From NCBI GenBank assembly GCA_014803525.1, contig JAAVBP010000002.1:6492-70491 (forward strand): DNA of 64,000 bases, read 5' to 3'. This DNA is from a bacterium (GTDB taxonomy: Bacteria > Pseudomonadota > Alphaproteobacteria > Rs-D84). The first letter of the stretch is position 1. Each line of letters starts with the position of its first letter. The position numbers and the translations under genes are program-made. The notes beneath the pieces were generated by a model. That model was not told the DNA's origin. It saw only the letters and a program-made list of their open reading frames with translations, and searched no databases. Positions 8,138 through 57,712 of the stretch are shown one piece after another.

Positions 8138-8202
8138 TTTATCCCTCTCCACTCTTTTAGATATAATTATACCATAATTAAGCATGAGTATCGGTAAATA
8201 AT

Positions 8203-8231
8203 TTGCTTTTCTGAAAACAATCCGATATAAT
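8203..8231 (+). promoter_or_regulatory. Sigma70-type promoter of leader RNA copy 1
   Basis: TTGCTT (8203-8208), 17-nt spacer, TATAAT (8226-8231). Nearly identical to the promoter at 51646-51674. Confidence 0.75.
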
Positions 8232-8237
8232 GGTCGT

Positions 8238-8385
8238 GCATCGGGTGACGCCCGGTGCGAGGTGTAGTAACCTCCATAGTGATTCTCCAACTGTGGTTGG
8301 AGGGTCGTGATATATATGAATAAACGACACTATACTATGATAGTTACTAACCTCCAACCGCATCTCGTCAGTGCGGGCTTTTTTA
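8238..8385 (+). ncRNA. Structured leader RNA with intrinsic terminator, copy 1 (unclassified family)
   Basis: P1 8238-8258 (GCATCGGG/CCCGGTGC). Long-range P2 8265-8280 with 8334-8349. P3 8285-8302 (CTCCAAC/GTTGGAG). P4 8304-8328 with the 15-nt loop GATATATATGAATAA. CCTCCAACC 8351-8359 is complementary to the P3 3' arm. Terminator stem 8358-8376 plus T6 at 8379-8384. Same architecture at 51491..51640 and 24908..25100. Confidence 0.7.
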
Positions 8386-8387
8386 TT

Positions 8388-8436
8388 CCCCTCCAGGGCC
8401 CGACGGGGCCCGGTCGGAGGGGTGTCACGAAGTGAC
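8388..8436. repeat. GC-rich nested palindromic insertion between leader terminator and HTH gene
   Basis: CCCCTCC..GGAGGGG (8388-8394 / 8416-8422) encloses GGGCC..GGCCC, followed by the GTCAC-GAA-GTGAC hairpin. Absent from the equivalent position in copies 2 and 3. Confidence 0.5.
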
Positions 8437-8476
8437 GGGGAGGGTTCCTTGTCACGTGAAACATATGGAGGAAAAA

Positions 8477-8764
8477 ATGAAAAAGAAAGCAATCAATGAA
8501 ACAGCCGCACGCGTGGGGCACGCACTGCGCACAGCGCGTCAGACGGCACGCCTGACACATGGCGATTCCGCAGATTTGTTCGGTATAACAATGGAAGAGC
8601 AGTTGCAATACGAACGCGGCACTGCCCAAATACCAATTGAGCTTTTAGAGCATATGTTTGTAATGGGCTACAAACTGATTGGTATTCGGATATTAGAAAA
8701 AAAGTATCGAATCAAGCGTGACTTCATTCGTAAAATAAAACAAACAATAAAAGAGGGTATATAA
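8477..8764 (+). CDS. Small XRE/Cro-type helix-turn-helix protein (95 aa), paralog 1
   Basis: GGAGG SD 5 nt before ATG 8477. HTH pattern LRTARQTARLTHGDSADLFGITMEEQLQYERGT. Clear paralog of 51176..51466. Confidence 0.7.
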   Translation: MKKKAINETAARVGHALRTARQTARLTHGDSADLFGITMEEQLQYERGTAQIPIELLEHMFVMGYKLIGIRILEKKYRIKRDFIRKIKQTIKEGI

Positions 8765-24096: not shown

Positions 24097-24633
24097 ATGA
24101 AACAAATCGCAGCAGCAATTTTCGGCATAGTCGCCATGGCGGGCGCGGCAGATGCAAAAACTTTGGTCGCGTATTATTCACGCAGTGGTAATACCGCCGC
24201 CGTGGCCGACATTATCAAAAATTCAACCGGTGCAGATATTTTTGAAATAAAAACAGCGGATGAAAATCACTATCCGGCCGAATATCGCGCCACGACCGAA
24301 GTGGCAAAAAATGAAATCAACAGCGCAACGTTCCCAGCAATAGCCTCCACACCCGACATGACGGAATATGACACCGTATTTATTGGCACGCCATGTTGGT
24401 GGGGCACAATGGCGGGGCCCGTGCATACATTTTTGAGCCAGGTTGACATGTCCGGCAAAACAGTTATTCCGTTTAACACCCATGGCGGCAGTGGCGCCGG
24501 CAGCGTGCACAGCGATATAGAAAAACTAACCCCCAATGCGACACATAAAACAGGCATCGCCATTTGGGGCAATGATGCATCCGATGCAGGTGACGCAATT
24601 AACAAATGGCTGACAGAAATCGGCATAAAATAA
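24097..24633 (+). CDS. Exported flavodoxin-family protein
   Basis: Signal peptide, then LVAYYSRSGNT and IGTPCWWG motifs. Confidence 0.75.
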   Translation: MKQIAAAIFGIVAMAGAADAKTLVAYYSRSGNTAAVADIIKNSTGADIFEIKTADENHYPAEYRATTEVAKNEINSATFPAIASTPDMTEYDTVFIGTPCWWGTMAGPVHTFLSQVDMSGKTVIPFNTHGGSGAGSVHSDIEKLTPNATHKTGIAIWGNDASDAGDAINKWLTEIGIK

Positions 24634-24635
24634 AG

Positions 24636-24662
24636 AAACGGGGCAGATGCCCCGTTTTTTTT
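24636..24662. terminator. Intrinsic terminator shared by convergent genes
   Basis: ACGGGGC-AGAT-GCCCCGT followed by T8. Confidence 0.7.
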
Positions 24663-24885
24663 AATTCATTTTGTAAAGTTCCCATAAACGTAAAAGATAA
24701 TACAGCTCTAATGAGTTACCGCCCTCGCAATCCTTCAAGGCGTCTATGCTAATATCTGCCAGTTCGGATGCATTTTCCAGTGTCAATCCAAAATCCATAC
24801 GCACGGCCTGCAAGAATTTACCGTATTCTACGTTAAATTCCGCTTTTGTCTTTCCCTTTGTCCCTGATGCTGTTGTTTCGACCAT
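24661..24885 (-). CDS. Small XRE-type helix-turn-helix protein (74 aa), divergent paralog 3
   Basis: GAGGGAG SD before ATG 24885. FGLTLENASELADISIDALKDCEGG HTH pattern. Preceded by leader RNA copy 3. Confidence 0.6.
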   Translation of the reverse strand: MVETTASGTKGKTKAEFNVEYGKFLQAVRMDFGLTLENASELADISIDALKDCEGGNSLELYYLLRLWELYKMN

Positions 24886-24907
24886 AATACTCCCTCTTTT
24901 TTGTAAT

Positions 24908-25100
24908 AAAAAAGCCGTCAGTATCTGACGGCGATTGGAGGGACGAACTGTCAACTTTTTAGGAAAAACAGTGTGCTTTATTTATATATATCAGCACACT
25001 CCAATCGCCGTTGGCGATTGATGTTTTACAGCGCCGAAGCGCAAACCTAAAAAGTTGATGTGGGTTCGTCTACCCAATCTGAGCCGTGGCTCAGATACTG
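24908..25100 (-). ncRNA. Structured leader RNA with intrinsic terminator, copy 3 (divergent)
   Basis: On the minus strand: P1 25077-25096. Long-range P2 (GACGAAC/GTTCGTC and CAACTTTTTAGG/CCTAAAAAGTTG). Extra UUCG-capped hairpin 25031-25042. P3 25002-25020 (CAATCGCC/GGCGATTG). P4 24971-24999 with loop GATATATATAAATAA. CTCCAATCGCC (24930-24940) is complementary to the P3 3' arm. Terminator 24914-24932 plus a U-run. Confidence 0.65.
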
Positions 25101-25149
25101 GGAATGTTATACTATTTTTTGACAAGATTCAATAGGAATGTTTCCGCCC

Positions 25150-48967: not shown

Positions 48968-50542
48968 TTATTTACTGCGATGCTTGATTATATACATCTG
49001 GACGATACCAAACAGGTTCGACACCGTCCAATACAAAACCAACCCGGCCGGCATCCATGCAAACAGTATTGTAAACAGAACCGGCATCCATTTCATCATA
49101 CGCTGGGTCTGGGCAATGGCATCATTTGTATTGCCAGATGTTTTCGGCGTCTGTAATCTGGACTGGAACCACATGGTCGCACCCATCAGAATCGGCAATA
49201 TAAAATACGGATCCATCGCGGCCAGATCGCGAATCCACAGGAAATGTGCACCCCGCATCGGAACAGATATCAATAACGCCTTGTACAATGCAAAGAATAT
49301 CGGAATCTGTAACAGCATTGGCAGACATCCCGACATCGGTGATGTCTTGTGAGTCTGGTACAGACGCATCATTTCAATTTGCATGCGCGCCTTGTCATTG
49401 GCGTACAGTTTCTGGATACGTGCCATTTCCGGCTGCATTTTCTGCATGGCGGCCATTGATGTATAAGACTTGCGCGTCAGTGGCCACATCAGCAAACGCA
49501 ACAGTATCGTCATCAATATAATCGCAATACCATAATTCATAACGACCGCATTTATTGCATTCAACACCCACAACATCGGCCGTGCCAAGAACCAGAACCA
49601 ACCATAATCCACCGTTTTATTTACACCCGGTATCATACGCGCGGCGTCGTTCAAAATGCTTTGATCGCGTGGACCGGCAAAGATCCGTGACACAATCGTC
49701 TGCGACGCACCAGGTGCAATGGCGACCGCGCCAGCGGCGGTGTCGGCCGCAAACATATCGCCGGACTTTTTCGCACGCATTGTTTGATCCGGATGATCAA
49801 TCGCGACAAATGTTTCCCAATATTGGTCTGCAAATCCGACAAAGCCATTCGTCGTCGTATATGCATATGAACGTTTGCCCAACGCGCGCCAGCTGTCATG
49901 TTCAATGTCGTTATTGGCAAATGCAACCGCCCCGGTATAAACACCGGCGGCCGCGGTATCTTTGTCCGACCGCATAATGCGCGCATATGGCGTGACCGCA
50001 ATTTGTGCGGCGGTATTATTTTTCACCGTATCATTAATTGTGATTACATAACCGTCGGTTGTGATTGTGCGTTCGAATTCCACGCCCGCCGGATTACGCC
50101 ATGTCATTACGCTGTCGGTGGTGCGCCAAACAGTATCCGCCGCCGGTGCCGTTGTATTCTGGGACAGCAGGCCCACCTCTGCAAATGCGCCAGCATCACG
50201 CGGCATCAATACAACCGGCGCGTCCGAATTTTTATCGCCGCCCGCTTTATAATCTAATAACTCGACCCCAGATATACGAGTGCCCTGGACATCAAATGCG
50301 ATTTTATCCGTATCAACGCGCGTGATCGGAACGTTCGACACATCAACCGTTGGCGCGGTGTCTGTGGGTGCGTTATCCTGCACGGCCGGGCGCATAAACA
50401 TTCCAATTAACCACCAGCATGCGACAAATATCGCCGTCCACCACAGGAATGATGTAAACCACGACTTCTTTTTCTGGGGCGCATTTGCGGCGCACCACTG
50501 ACCAAATCCGGAATTTTTATTATTATCCAAATATTTTACCAT
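48968..50542 (-). CDS. yidC: Membrane protein insertase YidC
   Basis: Large periplasmic P1 domain, then a conserved C-terminal 5-TM core (..GCLPMLLQIPIFFALYKAL..). Confidence 0.92.
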   Translation of the reverse strand: MVKYLDNNKNSGFGQWCAANAPQKKKSWFTSFLWWTAIFVACWWLIGMFMRPAVQDNAPTDTAPTVDVSNVPITRVDTDKIAFDVQGTRISGVELLDYKAGGDKNSDAPVVLMPRDAGAFAEVGLLSQNTTAPAADTVWRTTDSVMTWRNPAGVEFERTITTDGYVITINDTVKNNTAAQIAVTPYARIMRSDKDTAAAGVYTGAVAFANNDIEHDSWRALGKRSYAYTTTNGFVGFADQYWETFVAIDHPDQTMRAKKSGDMFAADTAAGAVAIAPGASQTIVSRIFAGPRDQSILNDAARMIPGVNKTVDYGWFWFLARPMLWVLNAINAVVMNYGIAIILMTILLRLLMWPLTRKSYTSMAAMQKMQPEMARIQKLYANDKARMQIEMMRLYQTHKTSPMSGCLPMLLQIPIFFALYKALLISVPMRGAHFLWIRDLAAMDPYFILPILMGATMWFQSRLQTPKTSGNTNDAIAQTQRMMKWMPVLFTILFAWMPAGLVLYWTVSNLFGIVQMYIIKHRSK

Positions 50543-50544
50543 TT

Positions 50545-51075
50545 TTATTTACCACCTTTGTTTGATGCACGCACGCGCGCAATAACCCAATTCAACAGAT
50601 ACAATCCAACACCCACGCAGATGCAAATATCTGCGACATTAAACGATGGATAGTGTAACGACCCGATATGAAAATCCAAGAAATCAACCACCGCACCAAA
50701 GCGAATTCGATCAATCAAATTACCAATCGCGCCACCCAAAATCAATGCCAGCGGCAGGCGTTCATTCGCACCCGCACGACGTAATGCATAATATCCAATA
50801 AACCCGATAATTGCCGCCGTCGCCACAACCATGAAAATCGGCGCAGCCTCGCCCAGTGCGCGAAACATTGAAAACGACGCGCCCGGATTCCATGTAAACA
50901 CGATGTTAAAGAAATCGGTTACACGTGCGATTATCCAAGGCTGGGGTACGATACTCCATGCGGCGCCATATAATGGAACCGTGCCGGTTACCAGATACAG
51001 CAGAATCCCTTTTGAAATTTGGTCCAGCAAAATCGCCCCGAAAATCACGGCCAAAAATTTAAATAATGACTTCAT
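50545..51075 (-). CDS. lspA: Lipoprotein signal peptidase II
   Basis: WNPGASFSMF, GGAIGNLIDR and FNVADICI motifs. Start at ATG 51075 behind AAAGGGAAAGG. Confidence 0.88.
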   Translation of the reverse strand: MKSLFKFLAVIFGAILLDQISKGILLYLVTGTVPLYGAAWSIVPQPWIIARVTDFFNIVFTWNPGASFSMFRALGEAAPIFMVVATAAIIGFIGYYALRRAGANERLPLALILGGAIGNLIDRIRFGAVVDFLDFHIGSLHYPSFNVADICICVGVGLYLLNWVIARVRASNKGGK

Positions 51076-51175
51076 TTGTCCTTTCCCTTTGTCACAGTCT
51101 ATGCAATATAGCAACACGCCGGCAGAAAAGCAAATATAATCGCCCCCGGGAATATAATTTCGGGGGCTGACTTTT

Positions 51176-51466
51176 TTACGGTATTTCTGCAACGGTGTGT
51201 CTTAATTTATTAAACACACGGCGTTGACGACGATACCGGTCTTCCAGTGTGCGAACGCGTATCATTTTATAGCCCATAACAATTACGCGTTCCAATACAT
51301 CCGCCGGGATTTTTGTTGTACCGCGTTCGTATTCCAACATCTCGGTCGGGGATATCAACAGCATTTTTGCAACTTCGTCATGGGTCATATAACATATGCG
51401 ACGCGCATTGCACATAATTGCGCCCAGGCGCGATGCGGTTTCATCAATTGGTTTTTGTTTTTGCAT
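51176..51466 (-). CDS. Small XRE/Cro-type helix-turn-helix protein (96 aa), paralog 2
   Basis: SD and spacing identical to paralog 1 (GGAGGAAAAAATG). MTHDEVAKMLLISPTEMLEYERGTTKIP. Confidence 0.7.
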   Translation of the reverse strand: MQKQKPIDETASRLGAIMCNARRICYMTHDEVAKMLLISPTEMLEYERGTTKIPADVLERVIVMGYKMIRVRTLEDRYRRQRRVFNKLRHTVAEIP

Positions 51467-51490: not shown

Positions 51491-51640
51491 AAAAAAGTCC
51501 GCTTTGACGAGAAGCGGTTGGAGGTTAACAACTATTAAAGGTAATAGCGCTGTTTATTTATGTATATCACAGCCCTCCAACCAACGTTGGAGTTTCCTTT
51601 ATGAGGTTGTTAAGCCTCGCACCGGGCGTCACCCGATGCA
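51491..51640 (-). ncRNA. Structured leader RNA with intrinsic terminator, copy 2
   Basis: On the minus strand: P1 51619-51639 (identical to copy 1), P3 51575-51592, P4 51549-51573 with loop GATATACATAAATAA, CCTCCAACC (51516-51524), terminator stem 51499-51517 plus U6. Only ~25 nt to the HTH start codon. Confidence 0.7.
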
Positions 51641-51645
51641 TGCAT

Positions 51646-51674
51646 ATTATATCTGATTGTTTTTGGAAAAGCAA
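51646..51674 (-). promoter_or_regulatory. Sigma70-type promoter of leader RNA copy 2
   Basis: On the minus strand: TTGCTT (51669-51674), 17-nt spacer, TATAAT (51646-51651). Confidence 0.75.
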
Positions 51675-51683
51675 ATTATTATA

Positions 51684-51899
51684 GCCACCCCCCGATGGCA
51701 TTCGCCATCACCCCCCCGCCAACGGCGGTGGGAATTAGTACGTTCACAGCTCGGGCTAATGGCCCCCGCCCGGGCGGGGGCTGTCGCCAAGGGCGACTGG
51801 GGGTGGCCGTTTACGTACTTCCCTATATTTGCTACCCCCCCGCAGTCCACCCACAAAAACATTCGTTTTTGCGGGGCCCAGAAACGGCGGTGGGAATTG
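51684..51899. repeat. GC-rich composite palindromic repeats (units c-a-b-c')
   Basis: Unit c 51684-51742, a 51756-51783, b 51795-51822, variant c' 51831-51899. Same units as at 2909-3043 but in circularly shifted order. Confidence 0.75.
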
Positions 51900-56267: not shown

Positions 56268-56338
56268 AATTTTTTATGCTACAAAAAATCCGCCCTTGAC
56301 GTCAAGGGCGGATGTAATCACAACAAATAAATTTGCGA

Positions 56339-57712
56339 TTATTTTACCAATGATACGATGCGTTTGCAACCGCATACCGATACCAATGTGCCTTCGACGC
56401 CGCATTTTTTGGCCGCGGCCGCCGCATCATGGGATGCAAACAGATCCGCATCCAGGATAGAACGCACGCCACGTGACAACGCCAACTGGTTCGCAACAAC
56501 TTCTTTGTCGCATACCGCAATAATCGGCATATTCGGACGACGGCAAGAAATTTCGGTTGCCGCAGCCGTATCCGGCGCGAACACAACGATTGCGTCTGCA
56601 TCATTCAATTCGGCCATAACCGCAACAGACAGCGACCAATCATTTTCCGGCAGATCTTCTACATCCGACCAATCCTGGGAATTTTCAACAGAATCAATAT
56701 CCGCGTTCAGCAAAATTTTTGCCATTGTTGCGGCAACGAACGGCGGATTTTCGCTGATGGTTGTTTCTTCGGATGTCATTGTTGAATCAACATGCAGATA
56801 TGCCGCTGTTGCAATGTCAGAAATTTCTGCACGTGTCGGGAAATCACTGTTAACCATAGAACCCAACATCTGTGTCGCCATGATAACCGGTTTGTTCTTT
56901 TCACGGCACAGGCGAACAATACGACGGGAAATTGCCGGTACTTTTTCAAACGGAACCTCTACCGCCAAGTCACCACGTGCAATCATGATACCATCGGCCG
57001 CGTCAACAATTTCTTCGATTTTCTCAACCGCTTGGGGTCGTTCAATTTTCGCAATGATCTTTACCGGATGTGATGTACGCGCAGTGATGAATTCACGTGT
57101 TTCCGCGACGTCTTCTGGTTTCTGTACGAACGAAATCGCAACAAAGTCCGGGTTCTTGGTCAAAACATATTCCAAGTCCGCACGATCTTTGGCCGTCAGA
57201 ACAGATGTTGCAACCTCGGTATCCGGCAGATTGAATCCACGACGGGACCAGATTTCGGTACCACGGATAACAATGGCTTCGATGCTGTCAGAGTTTACTT
57301 TTTCAACCTGCATTTCAATCTTACCATCGTTCAGCAAGATGCGATCGCCAGCCTTTAATGAATGAATAACGTCCATATCCGGCAACTGTACACGGTTGGA
57401 ATTACCCGGGGTCGGATCGGAATCGAATACGAATTTCTGGCCCGGTTTGATCGGGAATTTATCTTCGGTTTCAAAGTTACCAATGCGGTGTTTCGGCCCC
57501 TGCAGGTCGGCCAGAATCGCAACCGGATTACCAGTGCGCGCAGAAATTTCGCGAACCGCATCAATTTTTGCACCCTGAACATCGCCGCCATCATGGCTGA
57601 AATTCAAACGGCATACGTTTACACCCGCCGCAATCATTTTCTCCAGCATTTCTGTGCTGCCACTTTTCGGGCCGATGGACGAAGTAATTTTCGTGAATCT
57701 TTTCATTTCCAA
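56339..57712 (-). CDS. pyk: Pyruvate kinase
   Basis: TKITSSIGP..MLEKMIAAGVNVCRLNFSH and MIARGDLAVE motifs. Confidence 0.92.
   Translation of the reverse strand: MEMKRFTKITSSIGPKSGSTEMLEKMIAAGVNVCRLNFSHDGGDVQGAKIDAVREISARTGNPVAILADLQGPKHRIGNFETEDKFPIKPGQKFVFDSDPTPGNSNRVQLPDMDVIHSLKAGDRILLNDGKIEMQVEKVNSDSIEAIVIRGTEIWSRRGFNLPDTEVATSVLTAKDRADLEYVLTKNPDFVAISFVQKPEDVAETREFITARTSHPVKIIAKIERPQAVEKIEEIVDAADGIMIARGDLAVEVPFEKVPAISRRIVRLCREKNKPVIMATQMLGSMVNSDFPTRAEISDIATAAYLHVDSTMTSEETTISENPPFVAATMAKILLNADIDSVENSQDWSDVEDLPENDWSLSVAVMAELNDADAIVVFAPDTAAATEISCRRPNMPIIAVCDKEVVANQLALSRGVRSILDADLFASHDAAAAAKKCGVEGTLVSVCGCKRIVSLVK

Follow-up and report, generated by a model that had tools for sequence, protein, structure and literature searches.

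On the minus strand of a 64,000-nt stretch of contig JAAVBP010000002.1, from an alphaproteobacterium of the lineage Rs-D84 (the whole stretch is called the window here), positions 25111..24908 hold the third copy of a structured leader element, followed by a Shine-Dalgarno (SD) sequence and a 74-aa helix-turn-helix (HTH) open reading frame (ORF). Copy 3 is likely to be a cis-acting transcription attenuator, riboswitch-like in design, in the 5' leader of its gene. A constitutive-looking promoter would start an RNA with two mutually exclusive folds. In the first, fold T, the long-range helices P2a and P2b would form, helix P3 would hide a segment called seg2 by pairing it with the upstream seg1, and an intrinsic terminator would end transcription. 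In the second, fold A, the local hairpins Pa and H5 would form together with a long antiterminator helix (AT) between seg2 and the downstream seg3, which in copy 3 would consume five of the eight nucleotides of the terminator 5' arm. The gene would be OFF by default and read through once an effector favours fold A. Covariation across the family supports the two mutually exclusive folds; the alternation of the folds in vivo, a working terminator and the direction of regulation are what we infer from the sequences.

The 206-nt RNA of copy 3 has a minimum free energy (MFE) of -84.1 kcal/mol, compared with -44.4 ± 4.2 kcal/mol for shuffled sequences (z = -9.45; none of 200 shuffles was as good), and its MFE fold holds every helix named in an earlier reading of the letters alone (the sequence-only reading). 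According to that reading copy 3 keeps P1, P2, P3, P4, the terminator and a competitor strand, and all of these are in place. The helices that it listed were right, and it missed Pa and H5 of the alternative fold, both of which are kept in copy 3. Copy 3 carries all helices of both folds (P1, Pa, P2a, P2b, P3, P4, H5, AT and the terminator) and in addition the hairpin Px. The covariance model R2, built from 37 sequences from other genomes and none from the window, matched copy 3 over its full length (model positions 1-182) with 61.3 bits (E ~1.5e-13), and copies 1 and 2 with 120.8 and 132.1 bits, respectively. By its sequence, copy 3 is a divergent yet certain member of the leader family. An unfiltered covariance-model search found exactly three copies in the window; a candidate fourth copy at 56279-56343 was a weak match to the terminator only and was rejected.

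The helices of copy 3 occupy positions 25095..24908 of the minus strand. In the MFE fold, the leader starts with the P1 hairpin UCUGAGCC-ACGG-GGCUCAGA (25078..25095; as DNA TCTGAGC(C)/(G)GCTCAGA). The local hairpin Pa, UGGG-UAGACGAA-CCCA (25061..25076), was obtained with RNAalifold on the family and in the antiterminator-enforced fold, and its loop is the P2a 5' strand GACGAAC (25064-25070). In the MFE fold this strand (25070-25064) pairs with GTTCGTC (RNA GUUCGUC; 24948-24942) to give P2a, and P2b is formed by CAACTTTTTAGG (RNA CAACUUUUUAGG; 25057-25046) with CCTAAAAAGTTG (24963-24952). The Px hairpin, GCGC-UUCG-GCGC (25031..25042), had been described as an extra insertion of copy 3. It is present in the MFE fold but it is not extra: optional in the family, it is nevertheless the norm there (~34 of 50 members). 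Copies 1 and 2 fold into the copy-3 architecture without this tetraloop hairpin. Seg1, CAATCGCC (RNA CAAUCGCC; 25013..25020), is the P3 5' arm and the putative anti-antiterminator strand; the P3 3' arm in the MFE fold is GGCGATTG, which pairs with CAATCGCC at 25020-25013, the whole P3 stretch reading CAAUCGCC-AACG-GGCGAUUGGAG. Seg2, ACGGCGAUUGGAG (24999..25011), is both P3 3' arm and antiterminator 5' arm, being complementary to seg1 over 8-9 bp and to seg3 over 13 bp.

Further downstream on the same strand, the MFE fold contains the P4 hairpin (24970..25000), with the stem GTGTGCT/AGCACAC and the 15-nt loop GATATATATAAATAA (RNA GAUAUAUAUAAAUAA) at 24978-24992. H5 (24947..24972) pairs ACUGU (24968-24972) with ACAGU (24947-24951) around the P2b 3' strand CCUAAAAAGUUG (24952-24963) and was obtained from RNAalifold, the pair counts and the enforced fold. 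Seg3, CUCCAAUCGCCGU (24928..24940), is identified as the antiterminator 3' arm by its complementarity to seg2 and holds the competitor CTCCAATCGCC; the stretch CCCUCCAAUCGCC leads directly into the intrinsic terminator GCCGTCAG/CTGACGGC (GCCGUCAG-AUAC-CUGACGGC, then U6; 24908..24932), which was found in the MFE fold and by a consensus terminator scan. The SD AGAGGGAG (24890-24897) stands ahead of the ATG of the 74-aa ORF (24885..24661, stop included), a weakly Xre-like HTH protein (HTH_31, E = 0.03, below the Pfam cut-off). SD and ORF follow 47 nt past seg3, and the terminator lies ~45 nt before the start codon. At the other end, TATAAC (25106..25111, minus strand) is the putative -10 element, as it takes the same position as the TATAAT of the family and is kept in an orthologous locus, L082. 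TTGAAT lies 15 bp upstream of it, and a consensus promoter scan did not call this -10.

An exact-pattern scan of one genome per species gave 75 loci, 44 of them with the full element, the three window copies included. The covariance model R1 added members without the exact pattern, giving 51 aligned sequences, 50 of them distinct and used in the pair counts. Further copies in relatives, whose possible existence had been raised in the sequence-only reading, were thus found, and the family has at least 51 members with leaders of 155-200 nt. The hosts are almost all uncultured Alphaproteobacteria, known as metagenome-assembled genomes from animal and human guts and labelled Ca. Enterousia, 'Rickettsiales' UMGS or RUG/RGIG bins. 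Ca. Enterousia belongs to the order Rs-D84, and the genomes of this order are mostly smaller than 1 Mb (PMC12306168). The draft genome RUG12675 holds eight pattern matches and one divergent copy (at least nine in all), and another genome holds five. Pattern matches in Sneathiella, Bacteroidota, Clostridia and others were discarded as chance or unrelated. The loci L020, L028, L044, L070, L076 and L079, from Sneathiella spp. and marine metagenomes, have ~200 nt of conserved sequence in common, which is unrelated to the leader family. L027 (CAVGNU010000006.1), from a bin labelled Bacteroides fragilis, has a member and an HTH gene almost identical to the alphaproteobacterial L055 and L018 and is, on sequence, probably a binning contaminant.

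Fold T, as seen in single-sequence folds, consists of P1, the long helix of P2a and P2b around Px, P3 (seg1:seg2) and P4, and then the terminator. Fold A consists of P1, Pa (GRGG-N8-CCYC, with the P2a 5' strand as its loop), the helix of seg2 GGUUGGAGG with seg3 CCUCCAACC around P4, and H5 (ACUAU...AUAGU, with the P2b 3' strand as its loop). RNAalifold on the family alignment returned fold A with default scoring and fold T with ribosum scoring. For fold T, 94.4% of the cells are paired and 36 of 48 pairs changed on both sides, whereas none of 500 shuffles was as good; when the partners were slid by 1-3 columns, pairing fell from 94% to 35-46%. For fold A, 93.7% of the cells are paired and 27 of 37 pairs changed on both sides. 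The earlier proposal of selection on RNA pairing is therefore upheld, since the paired changes exceed what the background yields.

Changes on both sides occur in nearly all helices: in fold T they affect P1 (7/8 pairs), P2a (7/7), P2b (7/7), Px (4/4), P4 (5/5) and the terminator (4/6), and in fold A Pa (3/4), H5 (3/5) and AT (5/11). Among the sequences, the Pa pair 44:62 occurs as G:C (17), A:U (15) or G·U (14), and the H5 pair 274:295 as U:A (33) or A:U (16). In the AT helix, 42 sequences have G:C and four have U:A at pair 217:305, and at pair 210:312 46 have G:C and two, copy 3 and L012:6231-6424, have A:U. H5 reads ACUAU/AUAGU or GCAAU/AUUGU in the family, and the ACUGU/ACAGU of copy 3 is a compensated change from A:U to G:C. 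Two positions set the folds directly against each other. In four sequences A replaces C305, so that the fold-T pair 47:305 is lost, whereas the fold-A pairing is restored by U in place of G217; in two sequences G46 is changed to A, compensated at the local C60 and not at the distal C306. These changes favour the fold-A pairs over the competing fold-T pairs. The GRGG:distal-CCUC extension of fold T shows no double change in its four pairs. The fold-A helices are the more independent test, because they were not modelled in the alignment.

The two folds also have nucleotides in common: C59 pairs with G47 or G296, G296 with C59 or C273, seg2 with seg1 or seg3, and seg3 with GRGG, seg2 or the terminator. 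Since nucleotides are shared at every joint, folds T and A are alternatives, at least for P3, AT and the terminator. It is improbable that the leader is instead a static pseudoknotted structure without switching, in which Pa, P2a, P2b, H5 and P3 or AT form together, the terminator is a leaky constitutive attenuator and the RNA serves, for example, as an mRNA stabiliser or a processing or protein-binding platform. Such a structure would agree with the overlap of only 1-2 nt between Pa/H5 and P2a/P2b and with P2a/P2b covarying as strongly as the local hairpins, and kissing complexes offer a precedent for hairpin loops that pair along their full length with a distant strand. However, pairing of seg2 with seg1 precludes its pairing with seg3, seg3 can join either AT or the terminator but not both, and both partners were kept through joint changes in three independent variants.

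These variants stand out from a family in which seg1, seg2 and seg3 are nearly invariant and in which the little variation there is consists mostly of C-to-U or A-to-G changes in seg1 or seg3 that keep G·U pairs with an unchanged seg2. All three strands changed together in copy 3 (seg1 CAAUCGCC, seg2 ACGGCGAUUGGAG, seg3 CUCCAAUCGCCGU), in L012:6231-6424 (L012b; seg1 GCUCUAU, seg2 GGGAUUGGAGC, seg3 (A)CUCCAAUCCC) and in L045:7796-8000 (L045b; seg1 CCCUGAC, seg2 GGUCGGGGAG, seg3 CUCCCCGACC). Compared with the consensus, copy 3 has one base changed in seg1 (AAUCUCCAAC to AAUCGCCAAC), one in seg3 (CUCCAACCGCC to CUCCAAUCGCC) and three nucleotides in seg2 (GGUUGGAG to GGCGAUUGGAG), which jointly shift the P3 register by 3 nt on the 5' arm and lengthen AT to 13 bp. 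The claim that P3 and its competitor had changed in step thus holds as a joint change of three strands and fails as a pair-by-pair compensation of P3, whose 5' arm was shifted by 3 nt. The complementarity of the competitor to the P3 3' arm is longer than had been claimed: ACGGCGAUUGGAG pairs with CUCCAAUCGCCGU over 13 bp and takes five of the eight nucleotides of the terminator 5' arm. The L045 variant (plus strand) is highly divergent and cut by the end of the locus; all its helices are kept with other sequences (H5 AAUCA/UGAUU), and its P4 loop is UACCGUAAGG in place of the conserved AU-rich 15-mer. A metagenome scan for copy-3-like seg2 variants with an HTTGGAG...loop pattern gave six matches, all of them false positives.

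A search of 5.8 billion proteins with the copy-3 HTH protein returned only the protein itself and one fragment, which led to L082, an ortholog of the entire copy-3 locus with the flavodoxin neighbour included. The leaders are 84% and the ORFs 94% identical. Compared with copy 3, L082 has double changes in P2a (G:C to U:A), in Px (C:G to U:A) and, by manual pairing, two in P2b (AAUUUCUACG/CGUAGAAAUU); one closing pair of P4 is lost on both sides, and A to G in seg3 retains G·U with seg2. The HTH ortholog at L082:661-822 has an in-frame TAG (53 vs 74 aa) behind an intact leader, and could be a pseudogene or the product of an assembly error. The complementarity between TCCCTC in the copy-3 leader and its own SD (GAGGGA), pointed out in the sequence-only reading, is real and recurs in L082 (CCCUCC/GGAGGG), but it carries no information, as it is expected for any CCUCC against any SD.

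Because the complement of copy 3 folds equally well (-89.8 vs -84.1 kcal/mol for the sense strand), the strand is not decidable from copy 3 alone. In the family, G·U and U·G cells outnumber A·C and C·A cells by 134 to 14 in the fold-T helices and by 80 to 6 in the helices specific to fold A, 214 to 20 in total. This excess, the promoter, the U-tract and the downstream ORF jointly identify the functional molecule as the minus-strand RNA. A feature acting at the level of DNA, namely operators for HTH proteins, cruciforms or a dispersed repeat of the REP/MITE kind, is very improbable, and the sequences disfavour HTH operators as well as the DNA cruciform that had been offered as an equivalent explanation. 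P3 is a near-perfect palindrome beside HTH genes and the element is multi-copy, which would suit such a feature as would the equal folding of both strands of copy 3. Besides the G·U excess, the variation in seg1 and seg3, mainly transitions that keep G·U on the sense strand, argues against it, as does the occurrence of the element ahead of non-HTH genes; and while REP/MITE repeats have no fixed orientation or spacing, the element keeps one orientation relative to promoter, U-tract and ORF and a fixed spacing to the downstream ORF.

When the RNA is taken to end at seg3, copies 1 and 2 are more stable in fold T than in fold A by 2.0-2.5 kcal/mol, and the median lead of fold T in the family is ~6 kcal/mol; these energies take no account of a possible pseudoknot between the P2a loop and the linker in fold A. 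The thermodynamic lead of fold T would make termination the default, with fold A within the reach of an effector. Several points weigh against the attenuator as described here. In copy 3 fold A is disfavoured by 10 kcal/mol. P3 is almost invariant, with double changes in two of its seven pairs, and the case for a competition between seg1:seg2 and seg2:seg3 rests on few variant copies. The alignment used for the pair counts was fitted to fold T, which inflates the fold-T numbers. Pa, H5, P2a and P2b might not alternate but coexist in one pseudoknotted structure, as the ends of the local hairpins share only 1-2 nt with the long-range helices. The U-tracts of several terminators are weak (e.g., L001 and L042), no convincing ORF lies directly downstream in L012:6231-6424, L001, L002, L011 and L048, and the most conserved feature, the P4 loop, is without a role in the two-fold model.

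The two folds account for all conserved sequence except this 15-nt P4 loop, which has the consensus GA(U)AUAYAURAAUAA and is conserved in ~46 of 51 members. It is thus nearly invariant, as the sequence-only reading had wondered, though not fully so. A complementary partner of the loop was found neither in the leader nor in the window, where only the three copies themselves match (three occurrences of the motif vs 0.29 expected). Internal loop pairs (U3:A14, A4:U13 and U5:A12) were rejected, as they are not kept in L010 or L041b, and so was an internal sigma-70 promoter in P4, whose hexamers and spacing do not fit by eye. The presence of the P4 loop in both folds, its lack of a partner and its replacement in two otherwise complete members (L012:6231-6424 and L045:7796-8000) suggest a modular site at which a protein, a trans RNA or a ligand could provide the input. 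The prospects are about even that the effector is a macromolecule, either a protein or an RNA, recognising the GGAG/CUCC segments or the conserved P4 loop, which is single-stranded. A small-molecule ligand, which would make the leader a true riboswitch, is more doubtful, and the same degree of doubt attaches to a leader that has no dedicated effector and responds to temperature, ions or transcription kinetics.

GGAG at the core of seg2, and CUCC in both seg1 and seg3, are kept by every variant and in sequence mimic the SD and the anti-SD, respectively. GGUUGGA and ACCUCC both occur in the 16S 3' tail of E. coli, and we take UAACCUCC to resemble a 16S 3' tail. It is possible, though unlikely, that the family forms a genome-wide RNA regulon of very small genomes that is wired through this mimicry, the leaders sensing a trans factor. 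Free 30S subunits, a protein that binds the 16S 3' end or a processed seg2-P4 RNA as in phage P4 could be that factor. In that case the joint changes of three strands would have made copy 3, L012b and L045b into orthogonal classes of specificity.

There is similarly little to recommend a stand-alone trans-acting small RNA that runs from promoter to terminator and pairs with mRNAs through an exposed, anti-SD-like CCUCC segment or the P4 loop. In a version modelled on phage P4 immunity, a processed seg2 piece would pair with seg1 or seg3 of the nascent transcripts from all copies, copy 3 being a separate specificity class. A strong promoter and a terminator do bound a discrete, very stable RNA whose terminated form is the MFE form, and some copies have no downstream ORF. 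Variant copies adjoin canonical ones in one genome, and from copy to copy and genome to genome there is hardly any difference in seg1, seg2, seg3 and the P4 loop, in contrast to the turnover of every other helix; the slow evolution of the three segments, however, can be explained by the triple pairing constraint alone. The small RNA is further at odds with the orientation and the spacing to the downstream start codon, which are fixed in most members, with the overlap of seg3 and the terminator stem, a requirement of a cis antiterminator, with the covariation of the AT helix within single molecules and with the lack of a partner for the P4 loop in the window.

The position of the element agrees with the cis-acting attenuator. 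Of 44 members, 36 have on the same strand an ORF at least 55 aa long, preceded by an SD, whose start lies 40-75 nt past seg3. Small Xre-type HTH proteins are the largest class of products; the others include secreted Listeria-Bacteroides-repeat proteins, Cys-rich secreted proteins, a Dcm methyltransferase and a DksA/TraR zinc-finger protein. The term leader/HTH module, used in the sequence-only reading, therefore has to be given up, because the same leader precedes several unrelated gene types. In many members P1 follows, after a few bases, a near-consensus promoter, TTGCAA-17-TATAAT. An extended motif, gGTAAATATTTGCAAA-N14-TATAAT, is found upstream of P1 in L014, L019, L038, L041, L048 and L056, and copies 1 and 2 have a TAATAATTTGCTTTTC variant of it (window 8190-8231 and 51646-51690), a sequence pattern which suggests that a conserved UP-like or -35 element belongs to the leader module. 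In L010 (374-546 and 613-792), L041 (4260-4107 and 4082-3897) and L012:6594-6005 (minus strand), leader units stand in tandem before one small HTH gene, and every unit has a TATAAT of its own. L012 has three units in a row: a decayed one, a seg1-3 variant with an altered P4 loop and a canonical one.

The window is an ordinary piece of chromosome with rpoB/rpoC-sized ORFs, ProRS, flavodoxin, lspA, yidC and two tRNAs. Copy 1, identified by its fold and by R2, comprises the promoter TTGCTT-17-TATAAT, leader and terminator at 8203..8384 on the plus strand, followed by a 95-aa HTH ORF (8478..8764); it is monocistronic and faces a convergent ProRS gene. Copy 2, identified in the same way, has its promoter, leader and terminator at 51491..51674 on the minus strand, followed by a 96-aa HTH ORF (51466..51176) and, on the same strand, an lspA-like ORF and a long YidC (48968..50542). 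This region (48968-51466) may be an operon controlled by the copy-2 leader. Copy 3 is monocistronic and shares a bidirectional terminator (24632-24661) with the flavodoxin gene. The three HTH proteins match Pfam HTH models only below the cut-offs, no similarity was detectable between those of copies 1 and 3, and that of copy 2 has only four homologs among the 5.8 billion proteins. GC-rich, nested REP-like palindromes, e.g., CCCCTCC-AGGGCCCGACGGGGCCCGG-TCGGAGGGG, lie at window positions 8391-8460 (plus strand), between the copy-1 terminator and SD, and at ~51690-51780 (minus strand), just upstream of the copy-2 promoter.

The leader is thus a well-supported structured RNA family of uncultured hosts with genomes of ~1 Mb, in which few regulators are expected. 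It heads at least nine transcription units in one draft genome and three within the 64-kb window, and with many small transcription factors and secreted surface proteins among the regulated genes it may stand at the top of the regulatory hierarchy of these symbionts. Copy 3, its ortholog, L012b and L045b form a natural mutate-and-rescue series for the terminator/antiterminator mechanism. The nearly invariant P4 loop offers a handle on the effector, be the leader a new orphan riboswitch or an RNA-protein or RNA-RNA sensor.

Rfam 15 returned only the two tRNAs for the whole window at gathering thresholds, and only noise for copies 1 and 3 and three family loci at E values up to 1-10. Full-text literature searches by sequence, or by lineage together with riboswitch, found no description of the leader family, and the motif is absent from the first 200 of the 408 supplementary files of a survey of structured RNAs in the human microbiome (PMC8040213). 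Being absent from Rfam and from the literature searched, the leaders are a new family of attenuator- or riboswitch-like design.

Among known systems, the resemblance to the CcsR or 'cuckoo' RNAs is limited to their being multi-copy in Alphaproteobacteria and to conserved CCUCC segments. The cuckoo RNAs are short hairpin small RNAs that act in trans with CCUCC in their loops, whereas in the leader family CCUCC lies in strands that pair with internal GGAGG and the unit is a 5' leader. With T-box leaders, the LicT/BglG RAT, PyrR, TRAP and ANTAR systems, the family shares a decision between terminator and antiterminator in the 5' leader, which in those systems is governed by a macromolecular effector. 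In contrast to them, the leaders lack their signature motifs and Rfam matches, are not linked to a gene for a cognate binding protein and do not precede aminoacyl-tRNA synthetase, pyr, trp or sugar genes.

In phage P4 immunity, studied by Sabbattini, Forti, Briani, Deho and co-workers, seqB of the CI RNA is reportedly flanked by seqA and seqC, and the processed CI RNA is said to act in trans, its pairing causing termination. Both systems have three leader segments, the middle one complementary to the two outer ones, and control by premature termination. In the leader family the pairing is, however, predicted to prevent termination and to act in cis. The two systems resemble each other neither in sequence nor in Rfam matches, and the neighbours of the leader, chromosomal housekeeping genes (ProRS, flavodoxin, lspA, yidC and the rpoBC region), do not suggest a prophage.

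The trp, his and leu attenuators have the same three-way competition, seg1:seg2, seg2:seg3 and seg3:terminator corresponding to 1:2, 2:3 and 3:4. This likeness of design would allow a ribosome-mediated mechanism of the trp type, with a leader peptide across seg1 and seg2 deciding between 2:3 and 3:4 pairing, and copies 1, 2 and 3 do share one open frame from P1 to a UGA at the start of the P4 loop. Yet this frame is open in 16 of 46 members, compared with 10 and 10 for the other two frames, and the mean open lengths are alike (18.5, 19.0 and 18.1 codons). As no start codon, SD or reading frame is conserved in the 46 members, leader-peptide attenuation was rejected and is considered extremely improbable. 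The family differs from these attenuators in having no conserved leader peptide, and also in that P2a, P2b, Pa and H5 join the switch.

The closest comparison of design is with riboswitches on intrinsic-terminator platforms. These have, like the leader family, a sense-strand 5' leader, a covarying multi-helix junction and an exclusive choice between terminator and antiterminator, and both occur in many copies per genome ahead of diverse genes, occasionally as tandem units, which are known for the glycine, TPP and c-di-GMP riboswitch classes. In contrast to riboswitches, the leader family matched none of the Rfam 15 families, not even at E values up to 10, and its conserved unpaired nucleotides lie in the 15-nt AU-rich hairpin loop and not in a junction pocket. 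Copy 3 itself combines three features of a riboswitch, a place in the sense-strand 5' untranslated region, a covarying structured domain and a predicted exclusive terminator/antiterminator platform, with the difference that the entire leader RNA would refold and not just the P1 helix.

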